Source: a virus (lineage: Duplodnaviria; Heunggongvirae; Uroviricota; Caudoviricetes). From it: 64,000 nt of DNA. The DNA is taken from IMG/VR virus record IMGVR_UViG_3300021255_002251; one strand, given 5' to 3'. The translations under genes were made by a program, and so were the position numbers. Shown here in pieces: positions 6,526 to 52,627 of this stretch (its first letter is position 1; every line of letters starts with the position of its first letter). A model generated the notes under the pieces. It made no database searches, had not been told where the DNA came from, and saw only the letters and a program-made list of their open reading frames with translations.

Positions 6526-7296
6526 TTACTGTGAGATTGTTTCGCCTCCGTCAGCCATCAGGTCAGAGAGAGGATTTGTCTCTTCTGGTTTTGCGACGGA
6601 AGCACTGAAAAGGGTTGGGGCATCGTGTTCTTCCGTTTCACGATACAGGGCATCGAATTTGGGCTGGAGATTTGTGATCTTTACTACTATGCAAGAAGGG
6701 CCGGTAGTGTATCTCTTGTAAATGTGATAGGTATTGATGAAACTATCGTCCTTCCAGAAACCGGCTCTGGTCATGCTATCTATCAGGCCTTTGCATACAT
6801 TGTCTCCATCTGGCTTCTTGCAATGAGGCCCAATCTTATGACGGAACTTCTTTGGCATGCTCTCTGGATAAGGAAAGAAAAGCCTGAAATCAAGATCTAT
6901 CGGCACTTCTCCCCATCGCCCTGATTTAATAGAATAAGGTTCGAGTGCCGATTGGAATGTCTGTTCTGCTTTTCTTTGCTTTGGCTTTGTGAAGAAATGT
7001 ACATGCCCACCTTTGTCTACAAATGCGCCTTTGCCCTGTGCAGTAGGAATAGCACCTGGATTGACGGACAGAATGATTTTAACCTCATTCCCATCTTCCG
7101 ACACCCTAACTGACTTCACGAGACTTGCTGCCATGTCTGGAGTGAGGGTCTTCTTCTTCGCCCTTTGTTTTGGAGATAGTTGCGGCTGGGGATTGTCATG
7201 GCAAACAACCAAATCGCCAATCTGGGATTTTACCTTCTCCAGATTGGCTCTTGTTGCCGCTGACATCAGCATCGGGTTTATTCGTGGTGCTGGCAT
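6526..7296 (-). CDS. RusA-like Holliday junction resolvase (C-terminal domain) with N-terminal extension
   Basis: KKPDGDNVCKGLIDSMTRAGFWKDDSFI matches the RusA signature [27 protein letters not shown]. Confidence 0.65.
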   Translation of the reverse strand: MPAPRINPMLMSAATRANLEKVKSQIGDLVVCHDNPQPQLSPKQRAKKKTLTPDMAASLVKSVRVSEDGNEVKIILSVNPGAIPTAQGKGAFVDKGGHVHFFTKPKQRKAEQTFQSALEPYSIKSGRWGEVPIDLDFRLFFPYPESMPKKFRHKIGPHCKKPDGDNVCKGLIDSMTRAGFWKDDSFINTYHIYKRYTTGPSCIVVKITNLQPKFDALYRETEEHDAPTLFSASVAKPEETNPLSDLMADGGETISQ

Positions 7297-20089: not shown

Positions 20090-20875
20090 TCATCGGAAGA
20101 TTTGCTTGCCGGCGAAACCATTTCCCAGCATAGTGCTCTGTGGGTTCTCATATGCCCGTAGGGTCTTGTCGCTCTTCAATTCGTTCCACAGCGCTTCATA
20201 CGACTTGCGCGAATCGTAGTGTCGAAGAAGAGCATTTGTAAACTGCCCTCCTGTTGAAGCTCCATACGAATAGGTATCGTCAGGGCATCCGCTCCAGCAC
20301 AGCATCGAGAACTTCTGCTGCTCATTCAACCTATGATCCCACGATAGAGGTGGCCGAACCTTAAACCCAGGAGCGCGATACATCGTCTGCGAATGGCAAC
20401 AATCAAAGTATAGGAACACCCTCCCCTTGCTCTTGCTTATGATGCTCCATATCTCATTGTCTCGCATGTAAGTATCGTAGAGACATAGGAACTCATCCTT
20501 CCCGTCCACCTCTTCATTTCCAGTATTGTAAAACGGCTCGCTCCCTCCGTGTCCGGAATAGCAGAATATCACAAGCCCATCCGTTGCGCTTGCAATGGCC
20601 TTGTTCAATGCAGCCGTCACATTCGCTTTCGTGGCATTGGAATCTCTAAAGAGAACAATGTTCGGAGTATATGCCGATAGAAGCTTAAACATCCTATTCG
20701 CATCGTACCCCGCCCCCGGACAATCGCCAGCGAACCTCGAATTCTCCATACCAACAACCACCACATATGTGTTGGTTGATTTCGCTTCTGGCTGTATAGT
20801 TCCATCGGACTTGCATCCGCCGAATCCTAGACACATTCCAAACGCAACTAGAAATGCCATTACATGCTTCTTCAT
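20090..20875 (-). CDS. lipoprotein with caspase-like (peptidase C14) domain
   Basis: Lipobox MKKHVMAFLVAFGMCLGFGGC. Catalytic dyad context YSGHGG (His) and FDCCHSQ (Cys), as in caspase / metacaspase / CHAT folds. Confidence 0.55.
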   Translation of the reverse strand: MKKHVMAFLVAFGMCLGFGGCKSDGTIQPEAKSTNTYVVVVGMENSRFAGDCPGAGYDANRMFKLLSAYTPNIVLFRDSNATKANVTAALNKAIASATDGLVIFCYSGHGGSEPFYNTGNEEVDGKDEFLCLYDTYMRDNEIWSIISKSKGRVFLYFDCCHSQTMYRAPGFKVRPPLSWDHRLNEQQKFSMLCWSGCPDDTYSYGASTGGQFTNALLRHYDSRKSYEALWNELKSDKTLRAYENPQSTMLGNGFAGKQIFR

Positions 20876-21417: not shown

Positions 21418-22317
21418 CTAGAAAAGGAAGCCTTGGCTATATGTCTGTGCTTTCTCTTTTTCGGAGATATAATTCAGATAGAGGCTTTCAAACACCTCCT
21501 CCGTCCTGCCCTTTCCTAAGTATCTCTCGAAAGACGAATTCCCCGCATTGAGATATTCGTGGCGCTTATAAAGGCTTGTAGGAAGGTCGTATGTGCAATC
21601 CGTTTCACCCCGCTTGCCATCAAATGATAGAATCCATTTGCACTTGCGAGATGTTAGCCAATCGACAAAAGCATCAATATCTATACCTCCATAGTACATC
21701 TGCCTTTTGTGTACAGAAGCATACGGAGGGTCTAGGTAGAGGAAATCTTGGCATCTTGGTTCTAATGTTTCATATGATGCGCTCCGAAACTCTACAGACT
21801 TCGCCTTGAGAACTAAACTCCAGTCTCGACATATCTCTTTCAGTCGGACAGGGTGTATTCCGGGGCGTGAGAAATGACATGAATTATTGAACTCCCCCTT
21901 GTCGTTGTACCTCGGCATCCCATTTGTTGTAGTCCGCATTATGAAAAGGAAATCAATCGGGCTATGCTCTCTATTGTACCTGTCACGAATCGTATAGAAC
22001 ACTTCCTTTCTTCGCTCATAGTCCTCCTCACATAGCCCATGACGGTTGAATGCTTCCCACAATTCTCCATATCCATTGCATAGTTCGTCTGGATAGTCCC
22101 TTATCATGTTCCACAACCCGATAAGGTCTCTATTAACGTCAGATGCGACATATCTAGCGACCTTAACGGTAGGTGTATTAAGAAGACGATATAGTACGGA
22201 GCAGCCGCCACAGAACGGCTCATAATAGGTGGCAATCTCCCGTGGCATTCTGGCTACAATCTCCGCCGCTTGGCTTCGCTTGCTCCCGCTCCATTTGACT
22301 ATTGGCTCTAGTTGCAT
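21418..22317 (-). CDS. dam: DNA adenine methyltransferase, Dam / D12 class
   Basis: N-terminal KWSGSKRS (equivalent of Dam KWAGGK) and catalytic LYLDPPY. Its ATG shares the A at 22317 with the upstream gene's TAA stop. Confidence 0.85.
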   Translation of the reverse strand: MQLEPIVKWSGSKRSQAAEIVARMPREIATYYEPFCGGCSVLYRLLNTPTVKVARYVASDVNRDLIGLWNMIRDYPDELCNGYGELWEAFNRHGLCEEDYERRKEVFYTIRDRYNREHSPIDFLFIMRTTTNGMPRYNDKGEFNNSCHFSRPGIHPVRLKEICRDWSLVLKAKSVEFRSASYETLEPRCQDFLYLDPPYASVHKRQMYYGGIDIDAFVDWLTSRKCKWILSFDGKRGETDCTYDLPTSLYKRHEYLNAGNSSFERYLGKGRTEEVFESLYLNYISEKEKAQTYSQGFLF

Positions 22318-23138
22318 TAGAAAGCAAACTCCCCTTGGACAAGCCCCCTAATATCTATTGGCTTGTCATCCTTCGGCACGAATTCTCCCTTTAGTTCCGA
22401 ACTCTTCTCCGCCATCCCTTCCGCCATCAACCTTATCGGCATCCCATGCGCAAAGTAGCACGGAGTATACCACGGCCCCTCATACACTTCTCTCGAGAGA
22501 GAATCTTGGTGTGTGACTACAGCAGCATATCCTAGAAGAGAAAACTGGACATATGAAATGTAGCTCGCCGTAGGGTCTAAGTCTTCCCCATACAGAATCA
22601 AGTCGCATTGCCGACCGCCACTATCTATGAAAGCCTCCGCCGCTTCGATGAGCAATGCGCCGGCTCCGCAAGAGCAGTCGTTCATCCTTATTATCTTTCC
22701 AACCTTCGGGGCTTCACTAGCCATGGACATTCTCGCCATCATCCTAGCAATGCAATCGGGGGTTAGATACTGTCCAAAATGTTTGTTCGTTGCACTCAAT
22801 GCTTCATACACATGTCCTAGGAAATCGCTTCTCCTCAATTCTAGGGCCTGTACCACATAGGATAGCAGCACGGCAATCTTTCCCATTCCCTCATTGCCGT
22901 ATTTAGACACGAACGACATATACTGCTTTTCGATTTCTCCCTTTTCTTTTTCGTCCAGTGTCACAGCCCCGCTAATGGAAAGAGAGAATATCCTGCAGGC
23001 GTCGCAGAAAATAGTCCGCTGGTCTATGGACTGCGAGACGGAAGACAGAAGTTTTAGGAATGCCTTAAAGTATCCGTCCCAAGTTGTAGGCTCATCTACC
23101 TTGCGGACCGTCACCCCATTCTGCTGACTCTTTCTCAA
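22317..23138 (-). CDS. HsdM / N6_Mtase-family homolog lacking the catalytic NPPF/Y motif
   Basis: GQYLTPDCIARMMARM (motif X, GQ[FY]xTP) and DCSCGAGALL (motif I) are present. No NPPF/NPPY/DPPY follows. The ORF ends at a stop/start overlap with dam. Confidence 0.5.
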   Translation of the reverse strand: MRKSQQNGVTVRKVDEPTTWDGYFKAFLKLLSSVSQSIDQRTIFCDACRIFSLSISGAVTLDEKEKGEIEKQYMSFVSKYGNEGMGKIAVLLSYVVQALELRRSDFLGHVYEALSATNKHFGQYLTPDCIARMMARMSMASEAPKVGKIIRMNDCSCGAGALLIEAAEAFIDSGGRQCDLILYGEDLDPTASYISYVQFSLLGYAAVVTHQDSLSREVYEGPWYTPCYFAHGMPIRLMAEGMAEKSSELKGEFVPKDDKPIDIRGLVQGEFAF

Positions 23139-23542
23139 AACAATGTCTCCTCTTTGGGATTGACGTCGATCTCCTCTATCGTCTGCCCTATCTTGTCACC
23201 AAGCCATCTAGAAACAATATGACGATGACAGAATTTGTCAGGGGACTCATAACACATAAGCACCACTTTGTCTGTAGAACTCCTCTCTGCATACCTCCCC
23301 AATTTGAGCATGATTTCAGGTGCAGAAGCCATTGAAAGAATCTCCTTGTTGTACTTCTCTTCGTACACACCTGGATTGTTCTTCGCTCCAATGATTTCTC
23401 CTGTTGGCGCGAGGTCGGAAAGATACCATACAAGAAGGTCTTTGGAAAGAAACCATGGCCTAGTTCTCGCAATGCTTACAAGAGCATATCCCTTATCAGA
23501 ATATGCTTTCGCTTTTGCGAAATATCCAGTCCCGATTTTCAT
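23135..23542 (-). CDS. DUF488 (YeaO-like) family protein
   Basis: Collinear similarity to E. coli YeaO: ..KGYALVSIARTRPWF..LVWYLSDLAPTGEI...VVLMCYESPDKFCHRHIVSRWL.. Confidence 0.55.
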   Translation of the reverse strand: MKIGTGYFAKAKAYSDKGYALVSIARTRPWFLSKDLLVWYLSDLAPTGEIIGAKNNPGVYEEKYNKEILSMASAPEIMLKLGRYAERSSTDKVVLMCYESPDKFCHRHIVSRWLGDKIGQTIEEIDVNPKEETLF

Positions 23543-24330
23543 TCCTCACCCCCTTTAAGAAAAACTAGCCGTGCCTGCAGCCAAACTGGGACCTCCCTTC
23601 CCATAGCCACTATCTTCTCCGTATACCCAACATAATCAAAAGGCAACTGTCTCCACGTCACCCTTGGTATGGAATCGTCTATGATTGCATAAGTGCTATA
23701 CCTGCACAGTCTCGGATAACCAACGCTACCTACATTGAATATTGCCTCGCTCCATCCGTTTAGAGGTTGTGCAAGTCTTTTCCTAATACTTTTAGGTAAT
23801 GTCCCGTGGATAAGATTGCGGTCATCAGACGTGTTCCTTGCATACAACTCCGCTCCGTGAGTATGCCCTATGAAGAGAGCATCTATCCCGTTCTTGCGAA
23901 TCAAGTCCAGCTCCACTATTGCAGAGTAAATGGAGCCAATGTACCCGAACTGCTCCGGTATGGCATAGGTTCCGTGGCTAAATGCAACCTTTGTATCTCC
24001 AAACTGCTTCTCAATCTTGTACGGAAGGTTAGCTAGCCATTTCTTGTTCTCTTCCGTTACAAGTGGGCGATTAGATACAATGCCCTGTGCGGCATAGTGG
24101 TTGAACCAGTCAAGCGACAACTCACCTACAAGAGCAGCATCGTGGTTTCCCTTGATGCACTCTATGTCGTTCCGCTTGCAGATTTCGATGCACTCGTTCG
24201 GGTCGTATCCGTACCCAACGATGTCACCGCAGCAGATGATGTTCTTGCACCCTAGCCGCCTAGCGGAGTTGATTGCTCTCCGAAAGGCGGCAGGGTTTGC
24301 ATGAATGTCGCTAAAAACGGCTGTCTTCAC
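23539..24330 (-). CDS. calcineurin-like metallophosphoesterase (Ser/Thr phosphatase-like)
   Basis: Motifs FSDIHAN, GDIVGYG, GNHD, GHTH. Confidence 0.8.
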   Translation of the reverse strand: MKTAVFSDIHANPAAFRRAINSARRLGCKNIICCGDIVGYGYDPNECIEICKRNDIECIKGNHDAALVGELSLDWFNHYAAQGIVSNRPLVTEENKKWLANLPYKIEKQFGDTKVAFSHGTYAIPEQFGYIGSIYSAIVELDLIRKNGIDALFIGHTHGAELYARNTSDDRNLIHGTLPKSIRKRLAQPLNGWSEAIFNVGSVGYPRLCRYSTYAIIDDSIPRVTWRQLPFDYVGYTEKIVAMGREVPVWLQARLVFLKGGEE

Positions 24331-31168: not shown

Positions 31169-32797
31169 TTAAGCCTTCTTCTTGGAATCGCCGCCGTTGC
31201 TCCCAAGCAACTTGGTTGCGAGAACTCCTCCGATTGCGGATTTCACATCAAAGCCAAGAGACTTGGAAAGTCCATCGAACAACTGCGTGGTGTGGTCGAT
31301 GACCCCTGCGGCAATCTTCCCTGACTGATCGCCATACATCGTGATGTTTCCGACCTTCGTGTAAGCGGAAGCCACTCCAGTTGCGATTGCGGGGAGAACA
31401 TTGACGAACTCCTTTACTACCTGCAACTGCAAGTCCATCTTTGCCGCTTCTCCGTACTTCGCCATGGCATCGGCTTTCTTTTCCAGGCCCTCTGCCTCTG
31501 CGATTGCCTTTGCGCGGATAGCCTCTGCCTCCGCATCGCCCTTCGCCTTGATGACATAAGCCTCATTCTCACCCTGCACCTTGTTGGCATCTGCGATTGC
31601 CTTGATTGCGGCGGCTTCGCGCTCTGCTGCAATCTGCTTCGCCTCTGCTTCCTTCGCCTGCTGGAAAAGTGCGGCATCCGCAGCGGCCTTTGTAGCATCA
31701 GCCTCACGCTCAGCCTCTATCTGGACGGCTTCAGCCTTGCGGGTTCGCTCAGCAAGTTCCGCCTCCGCATTCTTCTGTGTGGTGTAGAGACGAGCATCGG
31801 CCTCCTGCTGTGCGGCGAACTTCTCCGCTTCCGCCTTCTTGCGGATTTCGGCATCGAGTTCCTTTTCGGTGATTGCCACCTTCCTCTGAGAGAGTTCGGT
31901 CTTCTTCTCGAGTTCTATGATGCTCGCATCACCCTTCGTTGCTTCGAGAATCTTACGCTGCTCTTCCGCCTGGATCCCCTTTGCGGCTTCTGCTATCGCA
32001 ATCTGAATGTCGGCCTGCTTCTTAAGGTCGGCTTTCTTGATTTCGAGTTCGTTGTTGCGAATCGCAATCTCCGTCTCAGCCGCTACGCGGGCATCGTTGG
32101 CTTCCTTTGCAGCCTTTGCCTTGGCCTGTTCCACCTGAGCCTCCGCATTCGCACGAGCGATTGCCGCATCCTTGGAGATGGTTGCAATGTTGTCAATACC
32201 AAGGTTCTCGATCGCCTTGTCATCGTCCGTGAAGTTCTGGACATTGAACGAGACGATTTCCAAACCCATCCTCTCCAAGTCGGGTGCGGCATTCTTCTTT
32301 ACCGCCTCCGCAAACTGCTGGCGATTGAGAACCATCTCCTTGGTTGTCATTTCACCAACAATCTCGCGCATGTTGCCTTCGAGGACTTCTTTGGCATTTT
32401 CGCTGATGTATTCTGGTGAGGCATTGAGGAAGTTCATCGCCGCAAGTGCGAGCATCTGCTCTTCACGGCTCACCTTGATGTTCACGACTGCATCCACATT
32501 GACGTTGATGAAGTCCTTGTTGGGGACCTTCTGCTTCGTCTTCACGTCAACCTGAATGAGTTCGAGCGTCACCACGTCAAGGCGCTCGAAGAACGGAATC
32601 CTAAAGCCTGCCCTGCCGATAAGAGTCCGCTTTCGGAGACCGGATATGATATAGGCTTTGTCGGGCGGTGCCTTGCAATACCCGAGCGCGAACACTCCAA
32701 TGAAGAATAGAACACCAACGGCGATACCAACGATTCCCCAAGGGAAACCGCCTATTGACGATGCCGCAAAAGCGGCGGTGACTACCTGTGTGTGCAT
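31169..32797 (-). CDS. flotillin-like SPFH / Band-7 membrane protein
   Basis: N-terminal TM segment. SPFH core ISGLRKRTLIGRAGFRIPFFERLDVVTLELIQVDV. Long Ala/Glu/Lys-rich flotillin-type coiled-coil repeats follow. Confidence 0.8.
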   Translation of the reverse strand: MHTQVVTAAFAASSIGGFPWGIVGIAVGVLFFIGVFALGYCKAPPDKAYIISGLRKRTLIGRAGFRIPFFERLDVVTLELIQVDVKTKQKVPNKDFINVNVDAVVNIKVSREEQMLALAAMNFLNASPEYISENAKEVLEGNMREIVGEMTTKEMVLNRQQFAEAVKKNAAPDLERMGLEIVSFNVQNFTDDDKAIENLGIDNIATISKDAAIARANAEAQVEQAKAKAAKEANDARVAAETEIAIRNNELEIKKADLKKQADIQIAIAEAAKGIQAEEQRKILEATKGDASIIELEKKTELSQRKVAITEKELDAEIRKKAEAEKFAAQQEADARLYTTQKNAEAELAERTRKAEAVQIEAEREADATKAAADAALFQQAKEAEAKQIAAEREAAAIKAIADANKVQGENEAYVIKAKGDAEAEAIRAKAIAEAEGLEKKADAMAKYGEAAKMDLQLQVVKEFVNVLPAIATGVASAYTKVGNITMYGDQSGKIAAGVIDHTTQLFDGLSKSLGFDVKSAIGGVLATKLLGSNGGDSKKKA

Positions 32798-33471: not shown

Positions 33472-34656
33472 TTAGTCTTCCTGCTTCATCAAATAGCGGT
33501 TGCTTACCGCCTTGAATGAAAGATTATGGATTGTATTGCTCTTGAAAACAATCCCCTCACGCTCATTCCCCCTAGCCGTCTTGCCCTCTGCGAACATAAG
33601 GACTGCATCCATGGTAGGATATTCCGTGAATACCTTTATAGACGGGCTAATGAGCTGAACATGTTGCAACCCAAGTTTCTCACACACTTCGCGCCGGTTA
33701 TTGGGAAGCAAATACATCTGGTTCTTGATGTCGTAAATCTTGAATACATGCCATTCATGTTCCTGATACTTGTCTCTATCGGCATTTATGCCTGGTCCAA
33801 CCAGTTCTCCTTGAATCGCATATTCAAGTCCTTCGGACTCAAATAGGTTCTTCAACTTCTTCTCGACATCATACTTCTCTGCCATCTGATACCCGAGAGG
33901 AATCCCGCCTTTTGCAAGTTCCGACTTGATTCGAAGATTCCTAGTGCAAACGCCAAAAGGTATTTCAGCATCAATGGTAGGAGAGTAAAACATCGTAAGA
34001 GAAGCCCCGTCATCTTTGGCAGTTGCTTCCCAGTCCATGTCTTTGTACTTCTCAAACCAGTCACTGAGATTCTGAACCCTTTCCTCATCAGTCTTAGGGC
34101 AATAGTCAGATGGGAACCTACCAATTGCATCTGCACTAATCGGATTACTGCCAGTTATCGGTTGTAACTGCTCTTTCACCTCATCATAATGTTCTACCTT
34201 AAGCAGCCTTGTAACATCTGCCCCCAACAATGGCTGTAGAACAAATTGTCCGTTATCAGTCTCCAAGGCTATCGTATCCGTGCCGTCTCCTTTAATCCCT
34301 CCCCCCTGACAACAATAGGCGATTTCGGGAAAGTCTGATATCGGCATGACAAGTCCCTGCGACACAACTCCACGCAACTTGCATGTCTTTATCCTTATGC
34401 CTTGGCGAATAACGTTCCCGCTCTTGCTAACGAACTTCTTTAAGCATCTGTCTTTTAGGAATGCATATCGGGCATCAGAATCATCAAGAAACGAATCTAT
34501 CTCAAAATACACGGCTAAGTCGCCAACATGAAACTCTCCTTTCTGGGTAACAACCTTCCAGCCCTTACCTTTCATCTCGACCCCCTCTAGGCGGTCGGCA
34601 TTTTCTATTGGCGAAACCTTACTGATTTCAACTATGCTCGCTAGTTTTCTAGACAT
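33472..34656 (-). CDS. ATP-dependent RNA ligase with N-terminal OB-fold tRNA-binding-like domain
   Basis: N-terminal KLASIVEISKVSPIENADRLEGVEM...VGDLAVYFEIDSFL (Myf/EMAP-like). Nucleotidyltransferase motif I KDDGAS (KxDG). Motif IV/V EGIVFK. Confidence 0.6.
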   Translation of the reverse strand: MSRKLASIVEISKVSPIENADRLEGVEMKGKGWKVVTQKGEFHVGDLAVYFEIDSFLDDSDARYAFLKDRCLKKFVSKSGNVIRQGIRIKTCKLRGVVSQGLVMPISDFPEIAYCCQGGGIKGDGTDTIALETDNGQFVLQPLLGADVTRLLKVEHYDEVKEQLQPITGSNPISADAIGRFPSDYCPKTDEERVQNLSDWFEKYKDMDWEATAKDDGASLTMFYSPTIDAEIPFGVCTRNLRIKSELAKGGIPLGYQMAEKYDVEKKLKNLFESEGLEYAIQGELVGPGINADRDKYQEHEWHVFKIYDIKNQMYLLPNNRREVCEKLGLQHVQLISPSIKVFTEYPTMDAVLMFAEGKTARGNEREGIVFKSNTIHNLSFKAVSNRYLMKQED

Positions 34657-42650: not shown

Positions 42651-44507
42651 CTATGCCACCTTTTCAAACTTGTTTATTGGGAACGATCGAATAAGATTCA
42701 CTATGCCCTTTGCCGTTGCAGTATGCAGAACCTTTATCGCATTGACAACAATTGCGACATCTTCCCCATCCTTCCCTATCCTTATGAGAAGCCGTATCAG
42801 ATAGTCATGCCATAGCTGTCTCGCAAAATACAACATCCGTATTTTGTCTGAGACAGTAGAGAAGTCTGACGAGTCGAAGTTAGACATTATCGTTATGAAT
42901 GCCTTGTATTCATCTGTAGACAACGATTCTACGGATTCCCTAATGCTATCAGTCTCACCTTCCTTATAGGACAATATGCTCTTTACAATCTTCCTAGAAG
43001 TGTTGGAACCGATGATTTCGATTGGAATCAATTTGTCCAAGCAAGACTTGATGGTTGCATCACCCTTCTTATTGAGAAGGAAGTTTATCAAAGCCCCTTC
43101 GGTTACAGAAGGAGGGGCATTCACATCGGCGGCATTACCAGCGACAATCGGCTCTATGAGCTGTTCCGCCGATTTGCTCTGGTCTTCCTCTTCTGCCTTC
43201 GTTGTCTTGGCTATCTCACTAGCCAAGGTAGAATACTCTACTCCTAATCGTTTTGCCGCCTCCTTAAGAAGCAATGAACGATGTACCTTGTCTTTGCATT
43301 TCGCTATAGTCTCTAGTACGGCTCTAGTAATCCTCACAGCGGCATTTGTCTCATCTGGATTCTGCTCCGCTGCTCTCGCCGCTCTTATCTGGAACTGAAC
43401 GATAGATTCAGCATTGGAAGCAATGAGGTTTGAAAAGGAGTCCTTCCCATGTTTCAAGATATAGGAATCTGGATCGTCTCCATCTGGAAGGGCCAACACT
43501 CTGATTGGCATACCCTCGGCAAGAAGCAACTGTGCGGCTTTTATCGTTGCCTTGTGCCCTGCTCCATCGTCGTCGAAACATAGAAGGGCATTGTCGGCAA
43601 CCCTATGGAGCATAACGGCATGGTCTTCCGTGAATGCCGTTCCCAATGGAGCAATAGCCGTATTGAACCCATTTGCATGAAGCCGTATGCAATCTATCTG
43701 CCCCTCACATATTATCGCTTCTCTGTTCGGAGCCTTCACGATGTTCTTGCGGGCTTCGTCGAATGCAAAGAATGTTCTTGATTTTTTGAATATCATCGTC
43801 TCTGGCGAGTTGACGTACTTCCCGCTTTTCTTGTCTTCAACCAACTGGCGTCCAGAAAAAGCTACCACCTGCCCATTCTTATCCTTGATTGCGAACACGA
43901 GACGATTTGCGAAATAGAAATATGGTGGACGGATTGCAGAGCCGCTAACCTTTATAATTCCTGCTGCCGCGAGGTCTTTATATGAGTATCCGTGTCTCCC
44001 AGCCCATGCTAGAATTTTATCTACCTCTTTTGGGGCATATCCTATGAGGAACTTGTCAACAATGGTTGCATCTAGTTCCCGCCCCTTAATATATTCTCTA
44101 GCCAGGTCTGCATCTTTGCATCGTGTAGACTTGAGCATCTTGTTAAAGTCTAAGGCCAGCTCCGACATGATTGCATAGAGCCGTTTTCTAGTCTTCACTG
44201 CTGGATTTTCTGCTGCATGAAGTTCTATCCCGACAGATGATGCGAGCTTCCGTATCGCATCTCCAAAAGAAAGCCCCTCCTGCTTCATCACAAAAGAGAA
44301 CACATCTCCACTCTCACCGCAGCCGAAGCAGTGGTATGTGCCACGTGTCACATCTACCTTGAAACTAGGGGTCTTTTCGTTGTGAAATGGGCAGCAGCAC
44401 CAAAGTTCGCTTCCTCTTGGCTTTAAAGAGAATCCATAAGAGGATATGAGGTCGGCTATGTCAACCTTTGCTTTTACCTCTTCCTTCTGTTCTTCTGAAA
44501 TAGCCAT
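42651..44507 (-). CDS. DNA primase (DnaG-like: CHC2 zinc finger plus TOPRIM)
   Basis: CCCPFHNEKTPSF...YHCFGCGESGD zinc-binding domain. TOPRIM ICEGQIDCIRL...LCFDDDGAGHKATIKA. Confidence 0.85.
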   Translation of the reverse strand: MAISEEQKEEVKAKVDIADLISSYGFSLKPRGSELWCCCPFHNEKTPSFKVDVTRGTYHCFGCGESGDVFSFVMKQEGLSFGDAIRKLASSVGIELHAAENPAVKTRKRLYAIMSELALDFNKMLKSTRCKDADLAREYIKGRELDATIVDKFLIGYAPKEVDKILAWAGRHGYSYKDLAAAGIIKVSGSAIRPPYFYFANRLVFAIKDKNGQVVAFSGRQLVEDKKSGKYVNSPETMIFKKSRTFFAFDEARKNIVKAPNREAIICEGQIDCIRLHANGFNTAIAPLGTAFTEDHAVMLHRVADNALLCFDDDGAGHKATIKAAQLLLAEGMPIRVLALPDGDDPDSYILKHGKDSFSNLIASNAESIVQFQIRAARAAEQNPDETNAAVRITRAVLETIAKCKDKVHRSLLLKEAAKRLGVEYSTLASEIAKTTKAEEEDQSKSAEQLIEPIVAGNAADVNAPPSVTEGALINFLLNKKGDATIKSCLDKLIPIEIIGSNTSRKIVKSILSYKEGETDSIRESVESLSTDEYKAFITIMSNFDSSDFSTVSDKIRMLYFARQLWHDYLIRLLIRIGKDGEDVAIVVNAIKVLHTATAKGIVNLIRSFPINKFEKVA

Positions 44508-45355
44508 TACCCCGCCACCTTGTCCTTTCCTGTCGGGAAGGGCTCATTAAACGACATCTCCCTTATGCAGCCTGGGTTCAGTTCTAGCAATTTTATCTTA
44601 TATGCGATATTGTATTCTTCGTTCACTCGGGACACGTTCCACATATTGACTATTGAGTTTTCAAGACTCGTATGTAGCGTGGTGCATCTATGGTCTCCGC
44701 TATGAATGTGTCCGAAAATAACCATTCTTGGAGCTCTCGCATCTATCACCCTAGCTAGGCTATTGCTCCCGAAGTGGCGGCGATATTTAGTAGGATAGTC
44801 TAGACTCATGTCAGCCTCATGATACTTCATTAGAGGCGGAGAATGTGTTATGAGAACATCAACTCTTGCTGGCATCTGCAAGAACCTGTCTGCAAGGTCT
44901 TCATCATCAGCTTCAAAGCACCATCTTCCGTTTATGTATGGCACCCACGGAGTCCCATAGAACCTAATGCCTTTTATCGTCACTTCCTCATCAATCAGAA
45001 GATGGAAGTTCTTTGGAACACGCGAGTATTCTCCTCTCTTGATTGCTTCATACTTGCTAGACAGATAGAAGTCGTGATTGCCAGGAATCGCTACCACTTC
45101 ACAATTTAGTTTCGATATAAGCGGAAAGAACTTGCGCTCAAACCAGTATGGCTTGCTTGTGAAAAGGTCTGCGGGTTCTATGTCACCAGCTATTACAAGT
45201 ATGTCAACATTTCTCGAAAAGCATACTTCTTGTATGCCCTCTACGTGACCATGGATATCGCTAGTTGCAGCGAGTACAAGCGGCTTTCCTATTCTTTCAA
45301 ACATGATCCTTGAATCTCCCCATTGCCAAGTCTCCACCAATCTTAAGACGGGCAA
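44507..45355 (-). CDS. calcineurin-like metallophosphoesterase (second copy)
   Basis: TSDIHGH, GDI, GNHD, GHIHSGDH motifs. Confidence 0.8.
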   Translation of the reverse strand: MPVLRLVETWQWGDSRIMFERIGKPLVLAATSDIHGHVEGIQEVCFSRNVDILVIAGDIEPADLFTSKPYWFERKFFPLISKLNCEVVAIPGNHDFYLSSKYEAIKRGEYSRVPKNFHLLIDEEVTIKGIRFYGTPWVPYINGRWCFEADDEDLADRFLQMPARVDVLITHSPPLMKYHEADMSLDYPTKYRRHFGSNSLARVIDARAPRMVIFGHIHSGDHRCTTLHTSLENSIVNMWNVSRVNEEYNIAYKIKLLELNPGCIREMSFNEPFPTGKDKVAG

Positions 45356-50264: not shown

Positions 50265-50338
50265 ATAAGGCGCTCTACCACTGAGCTAAATGGAGGCATA
50301 AGCCATCCACTACGGGATTCGAACCCGCGACCTCCTGC
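50265..50338 (-). ncRNA. permuted tRNA-like unit 2 (same 3' half, 9-nt linker, 5' half architecture)
   Basis: CCCGT-AGTGGAT-GGCTTATGC-CTCCATT-TA-GCTCAGTGGTAGAGCG. The acceptor pairs 6/7; the linker has the same length and the same GGCTTA start as unit 1. Confidence 0.3.
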
Positions 50339-50568
50339 TTACCAGGCATTAATAGGAACATTCTTTGCCGCAAAAAGAGATTTGTGCGAGTAGTATGGAT
50401 TTCATGGTGGAGGCTTATGCCGCGCCCCCAAGCGGTTAATAGGAACTACCTCTGCACAAAGAAATAAAAAGGGCGGAGAGTATCTTTCATCCAAAGAAAA
50501 ATAGGAACCCTCTTTGCCCAAAAATAGTTTTCAATTCATACGCCCCACTCGAGGGACGACCTAAACGA

Positions 50569-50641
50569 TGAAACCAGATGGACTCGAACCACCTCCTTCC
50601 AACGATTAATTGGAAATGCTTTCCTGTTACACCATGGTTTC
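50569..50641 (-). ncRNA. tRNA-like gene with an unusual anticodon loop (UUAAUCG) and no encoded CCA
   Basis: Acceptor GAAACCA / TGGTTTC pairs 7/7. T-arm GGTGG-TTCGAGT-CCATC. The anticodon stem TCCAA/TTGGA encloses TTAATCG, which has a pyrimidine at position 37; the anticodon assignment is ambiguous. Confidence 0.35.
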
Positions 50642-50867
50642 ACGTGGGAACTTTCCGAGTACCCAAAACTCCTGTTCCTTTGCGATACATGCGGTCTCTG
50701 ATATCTCCCAAGCCGAGCTTCCAGAAACAACTTGTAAACACCCATCGCATGAACAGCCTATCTCTTCAGTGGACCGTCACCGGATTAGCACCGTGCTGCC
50801 AGACCTATCGTTGCATGCTTGATTAGCACCCCTTGTACTTCGGGGCCGAACAGCCTGACTCTAAAGA

Positions 50868-50942
50868 TGGAGCAAGATGCCGAACTCGCATCGGCGTAAA
50901 CTACCTTGGAAGGGTAGCGCATAACTTCTCTGCCAATCTTGC
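50868..50942 (-). tRNA. tRNA-Gly(TCC)
   Basis: Cloverleaf by hand. Acceptor GCAAGAT/ATCTTGC, anticodon arm CTACC-CTTCCAA-GGTAG, T-arm GCCGA-TGCGAGT-TCGGC, CCA encoded. Confidence 0.7.
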
Positions 50943-50947
50943 AAAAA

Positions 50948-51022
50948 TGGAGCGAACTACGGGATTCGAACCCATGACCTCATCCTTGGCAAGGATACGT
51001 ACTACCACTGTACTAAGTCCGC
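50948..51022 (-). tRNA. tRNA-Gly(GCC)
   Basis: Acceptor GCGGACT/AGTTCGC (G4-U69), anticodon loop TTGCCAA, T-arm ATGGG-TTCGAAT-CCCGT, CCA encoded. Confidence 0.8.
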
Positions 51023-51113
51023 ATTTGCCCCTTATCCCACCACTTTCAGCGGGGGCTACCTCGTTTCCTCATATAGACCGACAGAGCGGGACTCCGGCGG
51101 AGAGGCTTCTAAA

Positions 51114-51189
51114 TGGAGCGACAGATGGGTTACGATCCCACGACATCAACCTTGGGAAGGTTGCACTCTACCAACTGAGTTACTGTCGC
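51114..51189 (-). tRNA. tRNA-Gly(CCC)
   Basis: Acceptor GCGACAG/CTGTCGC, anticodon arm CAACC-TTCCCAA-GGTTG, CCA encoded. Confidence 0.8.
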
Positions 51190-51196
51190 ATGAAAT

Positions 51197-51276
51197 TGGT
51201 GGAACCGATGGGAGTCGAACCCACTATTTGTCTGCTTGCAAAGCAGATGCCTTTACCACACTCGAGCCACGGCCCC
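51197..51276 (-). tRNA. tRNA-Ala(TGC)
   Basis: Acceptor GGGGCCG/CGGTTCC with G3-U70, anticodon arm TCTGC-TTTGCAA-GCAGA, CCA encoded. Confidence 0.75.
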
Positions 51277-51587
51277 ATTGAAAATGTTTACCAGCGGTTC
51301 TCAGATGCTTTTAGTTTTGTGGTATCGCATCCACAAACTTCAACCGCAGTCATAGCATCATTAGGCTCTTGGATTCGATAGGCATACATCCCATTCGGGC
51401 ATCGCTACCGTTCATGCCTAAAGTTTGGTTCTGCCTTACACGTTTCCTGCAAGGTGGAATCCAATGGTATGCAGAATTTAGCCTTTTGAGCCTATCTGCG
51501 TCTCGCCGCAATGTGAAATCCATCACTACAATGAGGAGCGACATCAAGGTCGGGACTCTTGTTGTTTGAACTAATACCATCAGAAAT

Positions 51588-51661
51588 TGGTGGACACGTT
51601 GAGAATCGAACTCAAGTCTTCTCGTTGCGAACGAGATGTTCTACCACTGAACTAGCGGCCC
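51588..51661 (-). tRNA. tRNA-Ala(CGC)-like; acceptor stem imperfect
   Basis: D-arm, anticodon arm TCTCG-TTCGCAA-CGAGA and T-arm TTGAG-TTCGATT-CTCAA are canonical. G3-U70 is present, but the 5' GGGCCGC versus 3' CGTGTCC strands leave three mismatches at positions 5-7. Confidence 0.45.
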
Positions 51662-51804
51662 ATGAAAATAAAGGACGATTGTCAAGAAGGACATCGTATT
51701 TCCATTAATGCCCATCACGTTTTCTTTCCCCAACTATTCACCCCAACGAAATCATTGGAATTGGGAAATGATAAACACTGATTTTGTCACAACCGCCATG
51801 GAAA

Positions 51805-51878
51805 TGGTGGACACGGCAGGAATTGAACCTGCATCTCTTCTCTGCCAGAGAAGCATTCTACCGTTGAACTATCGGCCC
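51805..51878 (-). tRNA. tRNA-Ala(GGC)-like; acceptor stem imperfect
   Basis: Anticodon arm CTTCT-CTGGCAG-AGAAG, T-arm GCAGG-TTCAATT-CCTGC, G3-U70 present. 5' GGGCCGA versus 3' CGTGTCC gives the same mismatch pattern as the Ala(CGC) gene. Confidence 0.45.
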
Positions 51879-51891
51879 ATTGAAATCGTTT

Positions 51892-51968
51892 TGGTGGACC
51901 CTGTAGGGAACGATCCTACAACCGTCTGGGTATGGGCCAGATGCTCTAACCAATTGAGCTAAGGGTCC
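51892..51968 (-). tRNA. tRNA-Met/Ile2(CAT), elongator type
   Basis: Acceptor GGACCCT/AGGGTCC (G1-C72 paired), anticodon loop CCCATAC, CCA encoded. Confidence 0.8.
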
Positions 51969-51973
51969 GAAAT

Positions 51974-52051
51974 TGGTCGGAGTGGAGGGATTCGAACCCC
52001 CGACGTTCTGCTCCCAAAGCAGACGCTCTGGCCAGGCTGAGCTACACTCCG
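51974..52051 (-). tRNA. tRNA-Pro(TGG)
   Basis: Acceptor CGGAGTG/CACTCCG, anticodon arm TCTGC-TTTGGGA-GCAGA, CCA encoded. Confidence 0.8.
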
Positions 52052-52056
52052 CTTGA

Positions 52057-52128
52057 AGCCCCCTGTCGGAAACGAACCGACGACCTCCATCTTACCAAGA
52101 TGGCATTCTACCACTGAACTAAGGGGGC
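52057..52128 (-). tRNA. tRNA-Thr(GGT)
   Basis: Acceptor GCCCCCT/AGGGGGC, anticodon arm CCATC-TTGGTAA-GATGG, no encoded CCA. Confidence 0.8.
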
Positions 52129-52131
52129 GTC

Positions 52132-52206
52132 TGGAGCCCCCGCCTAGACTCGAACTAGGAAATCCACTGTACGAAAGTGGCGGTTTTCCATTACACCTAC
52201 GGAGGC
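52132..52206 (-). tRNA. tRNA-Thr(CGT)
   Basis: Acceptor GCCTCCG/CGGGGGC (one G-U pair), anticodon arm CCACT-TTCGTAC-AGTGG, CCA encoded. Confidence 0.75.
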
Positions 52207-52214
52207 AAGTCTCA

Positions 52215-52302
52215 TGGAGCCAAGGAGCGGATTTGAACCGCTGTGTCCTTTCGGAGCGGGTGTACAAAACCCGTGCAATCAGCCAGACTATGCGACCTTG
52301 GC
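52215..52302 (-). tRNA. 88-nt tRNA with long variable arm (type-II-like) and apparent anticodon TGT (Thr)
   Basis: Acceptor GCCAAGG/CCTTGGC. A perfect anticodon stem CGGGT/ACCCG encloses TTTGTAC. A 14-nt extra arm CTCCGAAAGGACAC follows. T-arm AGCGG-TTCAAAT-CCGCT, CCA encoded. Confidence 0.5.
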
Positions 52303-52307
52303 AAAAT

Positions 52308-52382
52308 TGGCGGGGCTAGCGGTAATCGAAACCACATCAGTAGCTTAGAAGGCAACTGCTCTATCCGTTGAGCTATAGCCCC
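52308..52382 (-). tRNA. tRNA-Arg(TCT)
   Basis: Acceptor GGGGCTA/TAGCCCC, anticodon loop CTTCTAA, CCA encoded. Confidence 0.75.
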
Positions 52383-52391
52383 TCTTTGAAA

Positions 52392-52468
52392 TGGTGCGGG
52401 AGACTGGAATCGAACCAGCAACCTACAGTTTAGGAAACTGCCGCTCTGTCCGATTGAGCTACACCCGC
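52392..52468 (-). tRNA. tRNA-Arg(CCT)
   Basis: Acceptor GCGGGTG/CTCCCGC (one U-U mismatch), anticodon arm GCAGT-TTCCTAA-ACTGT, CCA encoded. Confidence 0.75.
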
Positions 52469-52470
52469 AT

Positions 52471-52548
52471 TGGTGAGGCTAGTGAGAATCGAACTCACAC
52501 AAGTCCTACCTTCGGAGGGTAGCGCTCTCTCCATTGAGCTATAGCCTC
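52471..52548 (-). tRNA. tRNA-Arg(CCG)
   Basis: Acceptor GAGGCTA/TAGCCTC, anticodon arm CTACC-CTCCGAA-GGTAG, CCA encoded. Confidence 0.8.
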
Positions 52549-52551
52549 TTC

Positions 52552-52627
52552 TGGTAGGGACGGACGGAATCGAACCGCCGACATATTCCGTGTAAAGGAA
52601 TCGCTCTGCCACCTGAGCTACATCCCC
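52552..52627 (-). tRNA. tRNA-Val(TAC)
   Basis: Acceptor GGGGATG/CGTCCCT (two G-U pairs), anticodon arm ATTCC-TTTACAC-GGAAT, CCA encoded. First gene of the array downstream of promoter 53101-53139. Confidence 0.8.

Follow-up and report, generated by a model that had tools for sequence, protein, structure and literature searches.

A class-II-shaped phage tRNAThr(UGU) from a widespread long-arm family, with an extra arm that may serve as a shield against defence nucleases

The 64,000-nucleotide (nt) stretch of Caudoviricetes DNA analysed here (IMG/VR record IMGVR_UViG_3300021255_002251; hereafter the window) contains an array of tRNA genes at 50567..52627 on the minus strand, one member of which, an 88-nt tRNA-Thr(UGU) gene at 52215-52302 (-), has a variable arm with its own hairpin. 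Fifteen genes of the array are called by ARAGORN; a further one, a tRNA-Ala(GGC) with a G3.U70 pair at 51808-51878 (-), was missed by ARAGORN and matched only by Rfam (49.2 bits), so that the array holds at least 16 tRNAs. The array, placed some 1.5 kb downstream of the portal gene, shares its strand with all the flanking genes, and around the Thr(UGU) gene its members are spaced 3-10 nt apart. By ARAGORN, this is the only Thr(UGU) gene of the array, and Thr(CGU) (52132-52206) and Thr(GGU) (52057-52128) adjoin it, as a first reading of the sequence (hereafter the original prediction) had pointed out. The window, in which all genes are on the minus strand, encodes a portal protein, a terminase fragment, a primase, NrdD, RecT and a YqaJ-like exonuclease; it is part of a large phage genome, and an identical NrdD is also found on a 271-kb contig. 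The synteny of the array is kept in 11 related contigs (individual contigs are designated below by L numbers), while megablast and blastn searches returned no close GenBank phage relatives of either the array or the tRNA.

The gene is identified by several criteria. ARAGORN calls a tRNA-Thr(UGU) of 88 nt, including the encoded CCA, with the anticodon at position 37; the Rfam tRNA model RF00005 gives 47.5 bits for 52218-52302, against a gathering score of 29 (E=2.6e-8); and the unconstrained minimum free energy (MFE) fold is the same five-helix cloverleaf (-31.5 kcal/mol, z=-2.2), with the canonical 7/5 acceptor/T branch and a 7-nt anticodon loop. The 5' strand of the acceptor stem, GCCAAGG (52296..52302 (-)), in which G1, C2 and C3 are of the Thr type, forms seven Watson-Crick pairs with the 3' strand CCUUGGC, which is followed by U73 (52218) and the encoded CCA (52215-52217; the whole element at 52215..52225 (-)). 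U8 and C9 (52294-52295 (-)) directly precede the D-arm, GCA(U)-AGUCUGGCUGA-(U)UGC (52275..52293 (-)), which has a 3-bp, class-II-like stem with a U13.U22 mismatch and an 11-nt loop, and which includes A14, G15, G18G19 and A21. The anticodon arm, CGGGU-UUUGUAC-ACCCG (52257..52273 (-); anticodon UGU at 52264-52266), is found by both ARAGORN and the MFE fold, and is identical, except for A38, to that of a normal 76-nt viral Thr(UGU) (L010). It is followed by the 14-nt variable arm, C-UCC-GAAA-GGA-CAC (52243..52256 (-)), in which 52253-52255 pair with 52246-52248 around a GNRA tetraloop (52249-52252), and by the T-arm AGCGG-UUCAAAU-CCGCU (52226..52242 (-)), also found by both methods. Thus, the perfect acceptor stem, the 5-bp anticodon stem around UUUGUAC, the variable arm with its small hairpin, the normal T-arm and the CCA of the original prediction are all borne out.

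Two features place the architecture of this tRNA in class II. The variable region, at 14 nt, is above the 10-nt minimum taken as the criterion for this class and forms a stem-loop; and the core has C9, a 3-bp D-stem, U13.U22 and a Levitt pair between G15 and C48, the last base of the variable arm. The class-II-like D-arm (3-bp stem, U13.U22, C9, 11-nt loop) had not been noticed in the original prediction, one version of which was a Thr tRNA carrying an insertion. That description holds in so far as an extra hairpin is present on a Thr acceptor and anticodon, but it falls short in that the D-arm core is also of class II style. No better fold places GUA, UGA or another class-II anticodon at positions 34-36, as a shift of the loop by one nucleotide breaks the stem; a register with a GUA anticodon was rejected for this reason. 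Judged from its sequence, the tRNA is a coordinated class-II-style core (variable-arm hairpin, 3-bp D-stem, unpaired 13:22, position 9 other than A) set on a Thr acceptor and anticodon.

To define the family to which the gene belongs, IMG/VR and bacterial and archaeal contigs (one genome per species) were scanned with a pattern consisting of the loop UUUGUAA, a gap forcing a variable region of at least 10 nt, and a T-loop, and the matches were filtered with ARAGORN; for both scans only the matches listed were considered, and the counts are lower bounds. At least 84 distinct long-arm Thr(UGU) tRNAs were found, 63 in unrelated viral contigs and 21 cellular. The latter have lineage-consistent sequences in Kiritimatiellia (from guts and rumen), Eremiobacterota, three cultured Spirosoma species, Acetobacteraceae and Rhodospirillaceae, where the genes are solitary on the chromosome or stand beside Tyr-Gly-Thr(GGU), and not in phage-type arrays. 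In addition, between 94 and 115 T5-like isolates in GenBank carry an 87-nt long-arm version annotated as plain "tRNA-Thr". The exact anticodon-arm pattern of our gene had no match in IMG/VR, because its relatives have A38; a relaxed pattern returned only L001, L002 and one short-arm tRNA.

Across the 84 family members the arm has a recurrent form, with a 5' spacer of 1 nt (72/84), a 3-bp stem (58/84), a 4-nt loop (64/84) that is of the GNRA type in 44/84, and a 3' spacer of 3-4 nt (68/84). The stem itself is highly variable, with 49 different sequences. In a sample of 55 members, chosen by arm length alone, 89.7% of cells are paired in the proposed register, versus 41% after shuffling and 26-41% in slid registers; double-sided changes number 72 versus 26 expected, and none of 500 shuffles attains the covariation score. 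The core, too, is of class II style. Positions 13 and 22 are unpaired in 79/84 members, whereas they are paired in 31/37 short-arm Thr tRNAs, and position 9 is G or C in 70/84, whereas it is A in 33/37 of the short-arm forms. The D-arm has 17 nt in 66/84, U8:A14 is found in 80/84 and A21 in 83/84. The Levitt pair 15:48 uses the last nucleotide of the arm and is complementary in 80/84 (G:C in 63, A:U in 17). This class-II-style core and covarying Levitt pair indicate that the arm is built into the fold as class II arms are. Together, the covariation, the compensatory changes (see also below) and the Levitt pair argue strongly, at the level of sequence comparison, that the stem of the variable arm is under selection as a structure.

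The same conclusion is reached within the clade of the phage itself. The near-identical viral contigs L001 and L002 have the same gene with one substitution, C38 to A. Eight further syntenic relatives were fetched through portal homologues from a large protein collection, and a portal-based scan of metagenomes added two loci. In L257, whose portal is 79% identical, an 88-nt orthologue aligns with our gene without gaps and keeps all five helices, including the variable arm, with compensatory changes in every helix: in the acceptor stem, in 4/5 anticodon-stem pairs, in two T-stem pairs and in the variable arm, whose stem is UUC/GAA instead of UCC/GGA (a C-G to U-A exchange). The Thr(UGU) slot is occupied by a long-armed gene in four contigs of the clade and by a short-armed one in seven, among phages whose portals are 72-99% identical, and in one contig the slot seems to hold an intermediate form, its D-arm being class-II-like and its variable region 8 nt long. 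The only hint as to the host is a relative binned in a Prevotella metagenome-assembled genome (MAG).

Small arms of this type are also gained and lost on Pro(UGG), Met(CAU) and Asn(GUU) within the clade. The tRNA-Pro(UGG) gene has a normal 78 nt in the window (51974-52051) and 86 nt in L001:14792-14877 and L002:4247-4332, the portals being 99% identical; elsewhere it has 88 nt and a clean 4-bp variable arm (L256:15222-15309) or 81 nt (L258:14684-14764). The core region of this tRNA thus seems to be swapped as a cassette over very short timescales. An 86-nt tRNA-Met(CAU) with a U1.U72 mismatch, A73 and a mini variable arm is found in L003:7607-7692, L253:12286-12371 and L256:21837-21922; its arm is UCC-GAAA-GGA in L253 and L256, the same hairpin as in our Thr(UGU) gene, and the fully compensatory GGC-GCAA-GCC in L003. 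The fragment represented by the window has no mini-armed Met(CAU) gene; the annotated initiator of T5 also has U1.U72. In two relatives (L253:437-1633 and L257:4431-5705), an IS605 OrfB/TnpB (Cas12f-like) gene has been inserted close to the portal gene.

Among the viral loci, tRNAs that the search pattern did not select for also have mini-arms, in about 11/38 of the Asn(GUU), 8/21 of the Ile(UAU) and 4/16 of the Cys(GCA) genes; in the loci sampled, no such arm is present on Thr(CGU/GGU), Asp, Glu or Gln tRNAs. The Asn(GUU) genes concerned have 83-94 nt, a normal discriminator G73 and arms that are often of the form N-N-N-GAAA-N-N-N (L004:5087-5170, L005:10489-10572, L132 (Bas33) 6777-6862, L130:1976-2058 and 11 other viral loci). 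The Ile(UAU) genes have 90-97 nt and arms of 4-7 bp (L044, L058, L066, L078, L098, L113, L126 and L128), and the Cys(GCA) genes have 84-86 nt (L047, L051, L082 and L106).

The original prediction had also raised the possibility of a chimera, charged by seryl- or leucyl-tRNA synthetase (SerRS or LeuRS) and misreading ACA. The identity elements of the tRNA do not agree with this. G1-C72 and C2-G71 are the acceptor determinants of the threonyl-tRNA synthetase (ThrRS) from E. coli. Our gene has both, together with U73, G35 and U36, and it shares U73, G1-C72 and C2-G71 with the neighbouring Thr(CGU) and Thr(GGU). For comparison, short-arm Thr, Ser, Tyr and Leu tRNAs were taken from the same contigs as the family. 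Among the 84 long-arm Thr(UGU) tRNAs, N1-N72 is G-C in 83, N2-N71 is C-G in 82 and N73 is U in 64 and A in 16, much as among 37 short-arm Thr tRNAs (G-C in 37, C-G in 37; U in 31, A in 5). The 45 Ser tRNAs have G-C in 39 at the first pair, G-C in 43 at the second and G73 in 40; the 32 Tyr tRNAs have G-C in 20, G-C in 29 and A73 in 30; and the 25 Leu tRNAs have G-C in 15, C-G in 14 and A73 in all 25. In body sequence, our tRNA most resembles the Thr tRNAs, with a similarity of 0.76 to one short-arm viral Thr(UGU) and, at the median, 0.60 to the long-arm Thr tRNAs, versus 0.44-0.49 to the Tyr, Ser and Leu tRNAs.

Thr identity resides in acceptor-stem pairs and the anticodon, whereas Ser identity depends on the long arm with G73 and acceptor determinants, SerRS disregarding the anticodon; C2-G71 is an antideterminant against the E. 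coli SerRS, Leu identity in E. coli depends on A73 and not on the arm, and the tyrosyl-tRNA synthetase (TyrRS) requires A73 and U35 (PMC9976931). None of the other isotypes fits. The variable stem has 3 bp, along with U73 and C2-G71, whereas the Ser tRNAs of related contigs have 6-bp stems in variable regions of mostly 16-24 nt; U73 and G15:C48 depart from the A73 and A15:U48 found in 25/25 phage Leu tRNAs; and U73 and G35 depart from the A73 and U35 of tRNATyr, GUA being at 34-36 in no register. The 7/5 branch is not that of the allo-tRNAs (8/4 or 9/3), and the identity elements match the Thr anticodon, which sets the tRNA apart from the nev-tRNAs (see also below). Within the whole set, a single member resembles a Ser-identity tRNA with a Thr anticodon: an 88-nt tRNA with the anticodon UGU, a Ser-like acceptor GGAGGAG, G73 and a 5-bp variable arm in a Planctomycetota MAG (L182:1626-1713), which, on these sequence features, is possibly a genuine mischarging chimera.

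The use of ACA by the phage leads in the same direction. ACA is its commonest Thr codon (281/906, or 31%). In an alignment of NrdD with 103 homologues of 69-88% identity, the 11 positions encoded by ACA are Thr in the homologues with a median of 0.99, versus 0.97 at ACC, ACG and ACU; ACA encodes 7/23 of the near-invariant Thr columns and 0/67 of the invariant Ser, Leu and Tyr columns (0/17 Ser, 0/30 Leu and 0/20 Tyr). By this codon evidence, ACA means Thr in this phage, and since ACA is the commonest Thr codon and falls at conserved Thr positions, a tRNA that decoded it while mischarged would be very damaging. From its identity elements, the tRNA is very probably a Thr-accepting, translational tRNA; no new coding phenomenon is indicated.

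What, then, could the arm be for? Host tRNAThr(UGU) is destroyed by defence nucleases. AriB, the nuclease of PARIS, cleaves E. coli tRNAThr(UGU), one of its prime targets, Asn(GUU), its secondary target, and Lys(UUU) at 40/41 and requires contacts outside the anticodon arm (PMC12409363), and the cut site is only a few nucleotides from the point where the variable arm leaves the body of our tRNA. P2-OLD attacks tRNAThr(UGU) first and foremost, and Thr(UGU) tRNAs of phages act as resistant replacements, that study counting eight rescuing Thr(UGU) tRNAs (PMC12445682). By the target lists of both sources, our array encodes a copy of a nuclease-targeted isoacceptor. Resistance through the variable region has been described for the T5 tRNATyr, which withstands PtuAB by means of a distinctive variable loop (PMC13096335), and phage Bas33 required only a resistant tRNALys to escape PARIS (PMC12409363). 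The only Thr tRNA of Bas33 is the 87-nt long-arm form, which has kept a perfect stem and the UAAUCA and CUG/CAG motifs of the E. coli type, whereas the stem of the short-arm Thr(UGU) of T5 is mutated and weakened. The concentration of mini-arms on Thr(UGU) and Asn(GUU), the turnover of long and short forms in the Thr(UGU) slot of the clade, and the ingredients of tRNA repair encoded in the window (an RNA ligase and two metallophosphoesterases; see below) point the same way.

We consider it likely that the gene encodes a functional Thr tRNA, a member of a widespread long-arm family, and we propose that the arm is kept as an escape from defence nucleases. The tRNA would most likely be charged by the host ThrRS and would decode ACA. 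It would adopt a class-II-shaped L, in which the short, 3-bp, GNRA-capped variable arm packs against the class-II-type D-arm core; the arm, leaving the body next to the anticodon-stem cut made by nucleases such as the AriB of PARIS (40/41) or P2-OLD, could make the phage tRNA a poor substrate for enzymes that destroy the host tRNAThr(UGU), and the phage would keep ACA translation going once the host tRNA is gone. Taken alone, the anti-nuclease part of this proposal is circumstantial and tentative, and we give it somewhat less than an even chance. Its extension, in which a mini variable arm with a remodelled D-arm core on class-I tRNAs would be a widespread phage counter-defence and an alternative to mutation of the anticodon stem, is possible but on balance doubtful. 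If true, mini-arms would protect the isoacceptors attacked by Toprim-type and other nucleases (Thr-UGU, Asn-GUU, perhaps Ile-UAU, Cys, Met and Pro), and bacteria whose own tRNAThr(UGU) is long-armed would likewise have fixed this solution, against toxins that cut tRNA.

Several observations weigh against a role of the arm in escape from nucleases. Lys(UUU), the top target of AriB, has an arm in only 1/17 cases, and Ile(UAU) and Cys(GCA) are often armed, yet are not known as targets of AriB or OLD. The best-characterised rescuers, the tRNAThr of T5 and the tRNAThr6 of the OLD paper, are short-armed. In several bacterial lineages the arm is also borne by chromosomal tRNAThr(UGU) genes that look like housekeeping genes, and it therefore need not be a phage adaptation. 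Neither the PARIS paper (PMC12409363) nor the OLD paper (PMC12445682), nor any other of the papers searched, mentions the variable region of these tRNAs. The rescue of Bas33 has other possible explanations, for instance that depletion of tRNAThr is not limiting in this phage. The retention of host-type motifs in long-arm members is a weak hint only, the statistic being biased, as the pattern fixes A37 and A38 and the sequences are non-independent. Lastly, the host is indicated only by the relative in the Prevotella MAG, and the Thr identity itself relies on rules established in a few model bacteria.

The housekeeping genes also give weight to a more ordinary account, in which the arm has no phage-specific role and the tRNA is a host-type tRNAThr(UGU), derived from a lineage with a native long arm and kept for folding or modification, or by drift. 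At least 25 long-arm Thr(UGU) genes in cellular genomes are lineage-consistent and solitary or beside Tyr-Gly-Thr(GGU), one MAG (L228) has a variable arm identical to ours, and class II tRNAs function normally with EF-Tu and the ribosome. We nevertheless regard this account as rather unlikely. The host hint is to Prevotella/Bacteroidales, yet no Bacteroidales genome is among the cellular matches listed; the nearest full-body relative of our tRNA is a short-arm viral Thr(UGU); close relatives swap long- and short-arm genes in the same slot, unlike passive inheritance; and similar arms arise independently on phage Asn, Met, Pro, Ile and Cys tRNAs. The strong covariation reflects selection on the hairpin, though it is compatible with a host-type tRNA too. 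Such selection, with the retention of the arm by compensatory change in the L257 orthologue, is in turn difficult to reconcile with an insertion in a decaying copy or pseudogene, or with an intervening sequence removed from the mature RNA. Irregular neighbours do occur, such as the 86-nt Pro(UGG) of L001 and L002, which has a poor D-arm, and a 98-nt "Thr(AGU)" in L003; but in our gene all helices are perfect, the arm is matched by a co-adapted D-arm and Levitt pair, the array has no second Thr(UGU) gene, and we know of no bacterial splicing system that acts at this position, all of which makes decay or splicing extremely improbable.

Charging by SerRS, LeuRS or TyrRS recruited through the long arm, with insertion of Ser, Leu or Tyr at ACA, is also very improbable. 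It could draw on the reality of the class-II-like D-arm and variable arm, on the indifference of SerRS to the anticodon (PMC9976931), on the view taken by Mukai et al. that, in allo-tRNAs, a long variable arm together with G73 or U73 hints at Ser identity (PMC5389517), and on the nev-tRNAs as a precedent (PMC3333845). However, C2-G71 is an antideterminant for SerRS (in E. coli), G73 is lacking and the variable stem has only 3 bp; U73 excludes Leu and Tyr, and G35 excludes Tyr as well; the acceptor set is that of ordinary Thr tRNAs in 82-83/84 members; ACA, the commonest Thr codon, encodes invariant Thr residues; and the same design appears to be housekeeping in several bacteria. An improbable, if less remote, alternative is that a dedicated partner recognises the GNRA-capped arm, instead of the arm being a passive shield, whether this partner is a phage or host enzyme of modification, processing or repair or a nuclease for which the tRNA is a decoy, or that the RNA is non-translational. 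A GNRA loop is found in 44/84 arms and the spacers vary little in length (5' side, 1 nt in 72/84; 3' side, 3-4 nt); the window also encodes an RNA ligase; and the authors of the PARIS study propose some viral tRNAs, when overexpressed, as possible inhibitors of AriB (PMC12409363). Against this, the loop is not GNRA in 40/84 members and the stem sequence is free, so that no conserved sequence is there to be recognised; neither in the window nor in its relatives is a candidate partner gene linked to the array; and full Thr identity with an encoded CCA points to ordinary translation. As to non-translational roles, a use in Mom DNA hypermodification was rejected because Mom uses Gly-tRNA.

Other elements in and around the array are of interest in their own right. 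A tRNA-Ala(UGC) of 80 nt (51197-51276 (-)), with G3.U70, G9, a 3-bp D-stem, an 11-nt D-loop and a variable region of 6-7 nt, is another expanded-core tRNA and is kept across the clade (L255:16511-16590, L256:17081-17160, L258:15709-15788 and L259:15778-15857); the Rfam model for transfer-messenger RNA (tmRNA) matches this region weakly (25 bits), and at the matching place in the array of L001, ARAGORN predicts a His(AUG) gene of 79 nt whose acceptor stem has 8 bp, a putative counterpart. At 50567-50642 (-), ARAGORN calls a tRNA-Ile(AAU) with an 8-bp acceptor stem (Rfam, 45 bits), whose A34 anticodon is unusual for a bacterial Ile tRNA. A tRNA-like element at 50265-50340 (-), also present in L001:16119-16194, is a weak match to Rfam YrlA (33.8 bits versus a threshold of 69), and is probably what ARAGORN calls, in relatives, a tRNA with a 4-base anticodon (GGAA). 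In its fold a T-arm-like hairpin precedes a D-arm-like hairpin, an order suggestive of a permuted tRNA-like module.

Elsewhere in the window, we found an RNA ligase (PF09414 with the PHA02142 OB-fold domain; 33472-34656 (-)) and two calcineurin-like metallophosphoesterases (23539-24330 (-) and 44507-45355 (-)); together these could form a tRNA-repair pathway such as phages deploy against anticodon nucleases. Also encoded are a caspase-domain (Peptidase_C14) protein at 20090-20875, an SPFH/flotillin-like protein at 31169-32797 and, at 21418-23138, two adjacent N6-adenine DNA methyltransferases (all -). No synthetase or tRNA-modification gene was detected among the 20 largest unassigned open reading frames of the window.

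Reviews and textbooks limit long arms to Leu, Ser, bacterial Tyr and Sec tRNAs, with the nev-tRNAs and allo-tRNAs as exotic, mischarging exceptions. The original prediction followed this rule, which is indeed the textbook one but is contradicted by the many long-arm Thr(UGU) sequences found here; our gene is a case of a class-II-shaped tRNAThr that is correctly matched. The family of which it is a further member already stands, unremarked, in GenBank annotations, and neither the family nor the mini-arms on other class-I isotypes appear to be discussed in the literature searched. For annotation, it follows that length alone is no reason to flag such tRNAs as chimeras or suppressors. For phage-host biology, the overlap with the targets of PARIS and P2-OLD offers a concrete hypothesis for the escape of phage tRNAs from anticodon-stem nucleases. 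ThrRS apparently tolerates a class-II core, which is useful in the design of orthogonal or tagged tRNAs. Even if the arm were neutral, the family would be a useful, though ordinary, correction to the class I/class II rule.

Among known systems, the allo-tRNAs and selC* tRNAs of metagenomes and some phages (Mukai et al., 2017; PMC5389517) share with our tRNA a long variable arm and anticodons other than those of Ser or Leu. The allo-tRNAs, however, combine 8/4 or 9/3 branches and long stems in the anticodon and D-arms with an identity of Ser or Ala (PMC5389517), whereas in our tRNA the branch is the canonical 7/5, the anticodon stem has 5 bp and the variable stem is short, at 3 bp. The nematode nev-tRNAs, class II molecules with Gly or Ile anticodons that are charged with Leu, likewise combine a variable arm with an anticodon of a class-I family, and Ile(UAU) is common to them and to the mini-armed phage tRNAs; but they are eukaryotic, of Leu identity and mischarged, whereas our tRNA, from the phage and bacterial world, has a Thr identity set and serves a heavily used codon at conserved Thr sites. 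The closer likeness in shape is to the bacterial class II tRNAs, tRNATyr especially, but also tRNALeu and tRNASer, which have a long variable arm with its own hairpin, a 3-bp D-stem, an unpaired 13:22, a position 9 other than A, a D-arm of about 17 nt and a Levitt pair to the last variable nucleotide. The size of the arm (14-15 nt with a 3-bp stem in the family) matches that of the Tyr and Leu arms in the same contigs. The differences lie in identity, C2-G71, U73, G35 and U36 contrasting with G2-C71, A73 and U35 in Tyr, A73 in Leu, and G2-C71, G73 and a variable region of mostly 16-24 nt in Ser, and the body sequence is closer to that of Thr tRNAs.

The counterpart among isolated phages is the 87-nt tRNA-Thr(UGU) of T5-like phages, found in HildyBeyeler, which is BASEL phage Bas33 (bas33_0122), in Salmonella phage SE11 and in "T5_ev212". 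Like our tRNA, it has G1-C2, a 3-bp D-stem and a variable region made of 1 nt, a 3-bp stem, a GNRA loop and 3-4 nt, and its anticodon loop is UUUGUAA. Its sequence is unrelated, with no BLAST match, its discriminator is A73 where ours is U73, and in the anticodon stem it resembles E. coli (UAAUCA, CUG/CAG), ours being CGGGU/ACCCG. Reference T5 itself, whose tRNAThr(UGU) was used in the PARIS paper, does not share the long-arm gene of "T5_ev212"; its genome shows a normal gene of 75 nt. Functionally, the nearest parallels are the resistant phage tRNAs, namely the T5 tRNALys, tRNAThr and tRNAAsn versus the AriB of PARIS, phage tRNAThr(UGU) versus P2-OLD and the T5 tRNATyr versus the PtuAB of retron-Eco7, each of which, like our tRNA, is a phage copy of a nuclease-destroyed isoacceptor that differs structurally from that of the host near the cleavage site. 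The published determinants of resistance are substitutions in, or shortening of, the anticodon stem-loop, or changes of the variable loop in a tRNA that is already armed; an arm added to a class-I isotype is undescribed as such a determinant in the literature searched, and it is the T5 tRNATyr that provides the precedent for resistance through a distinctive variable loop.

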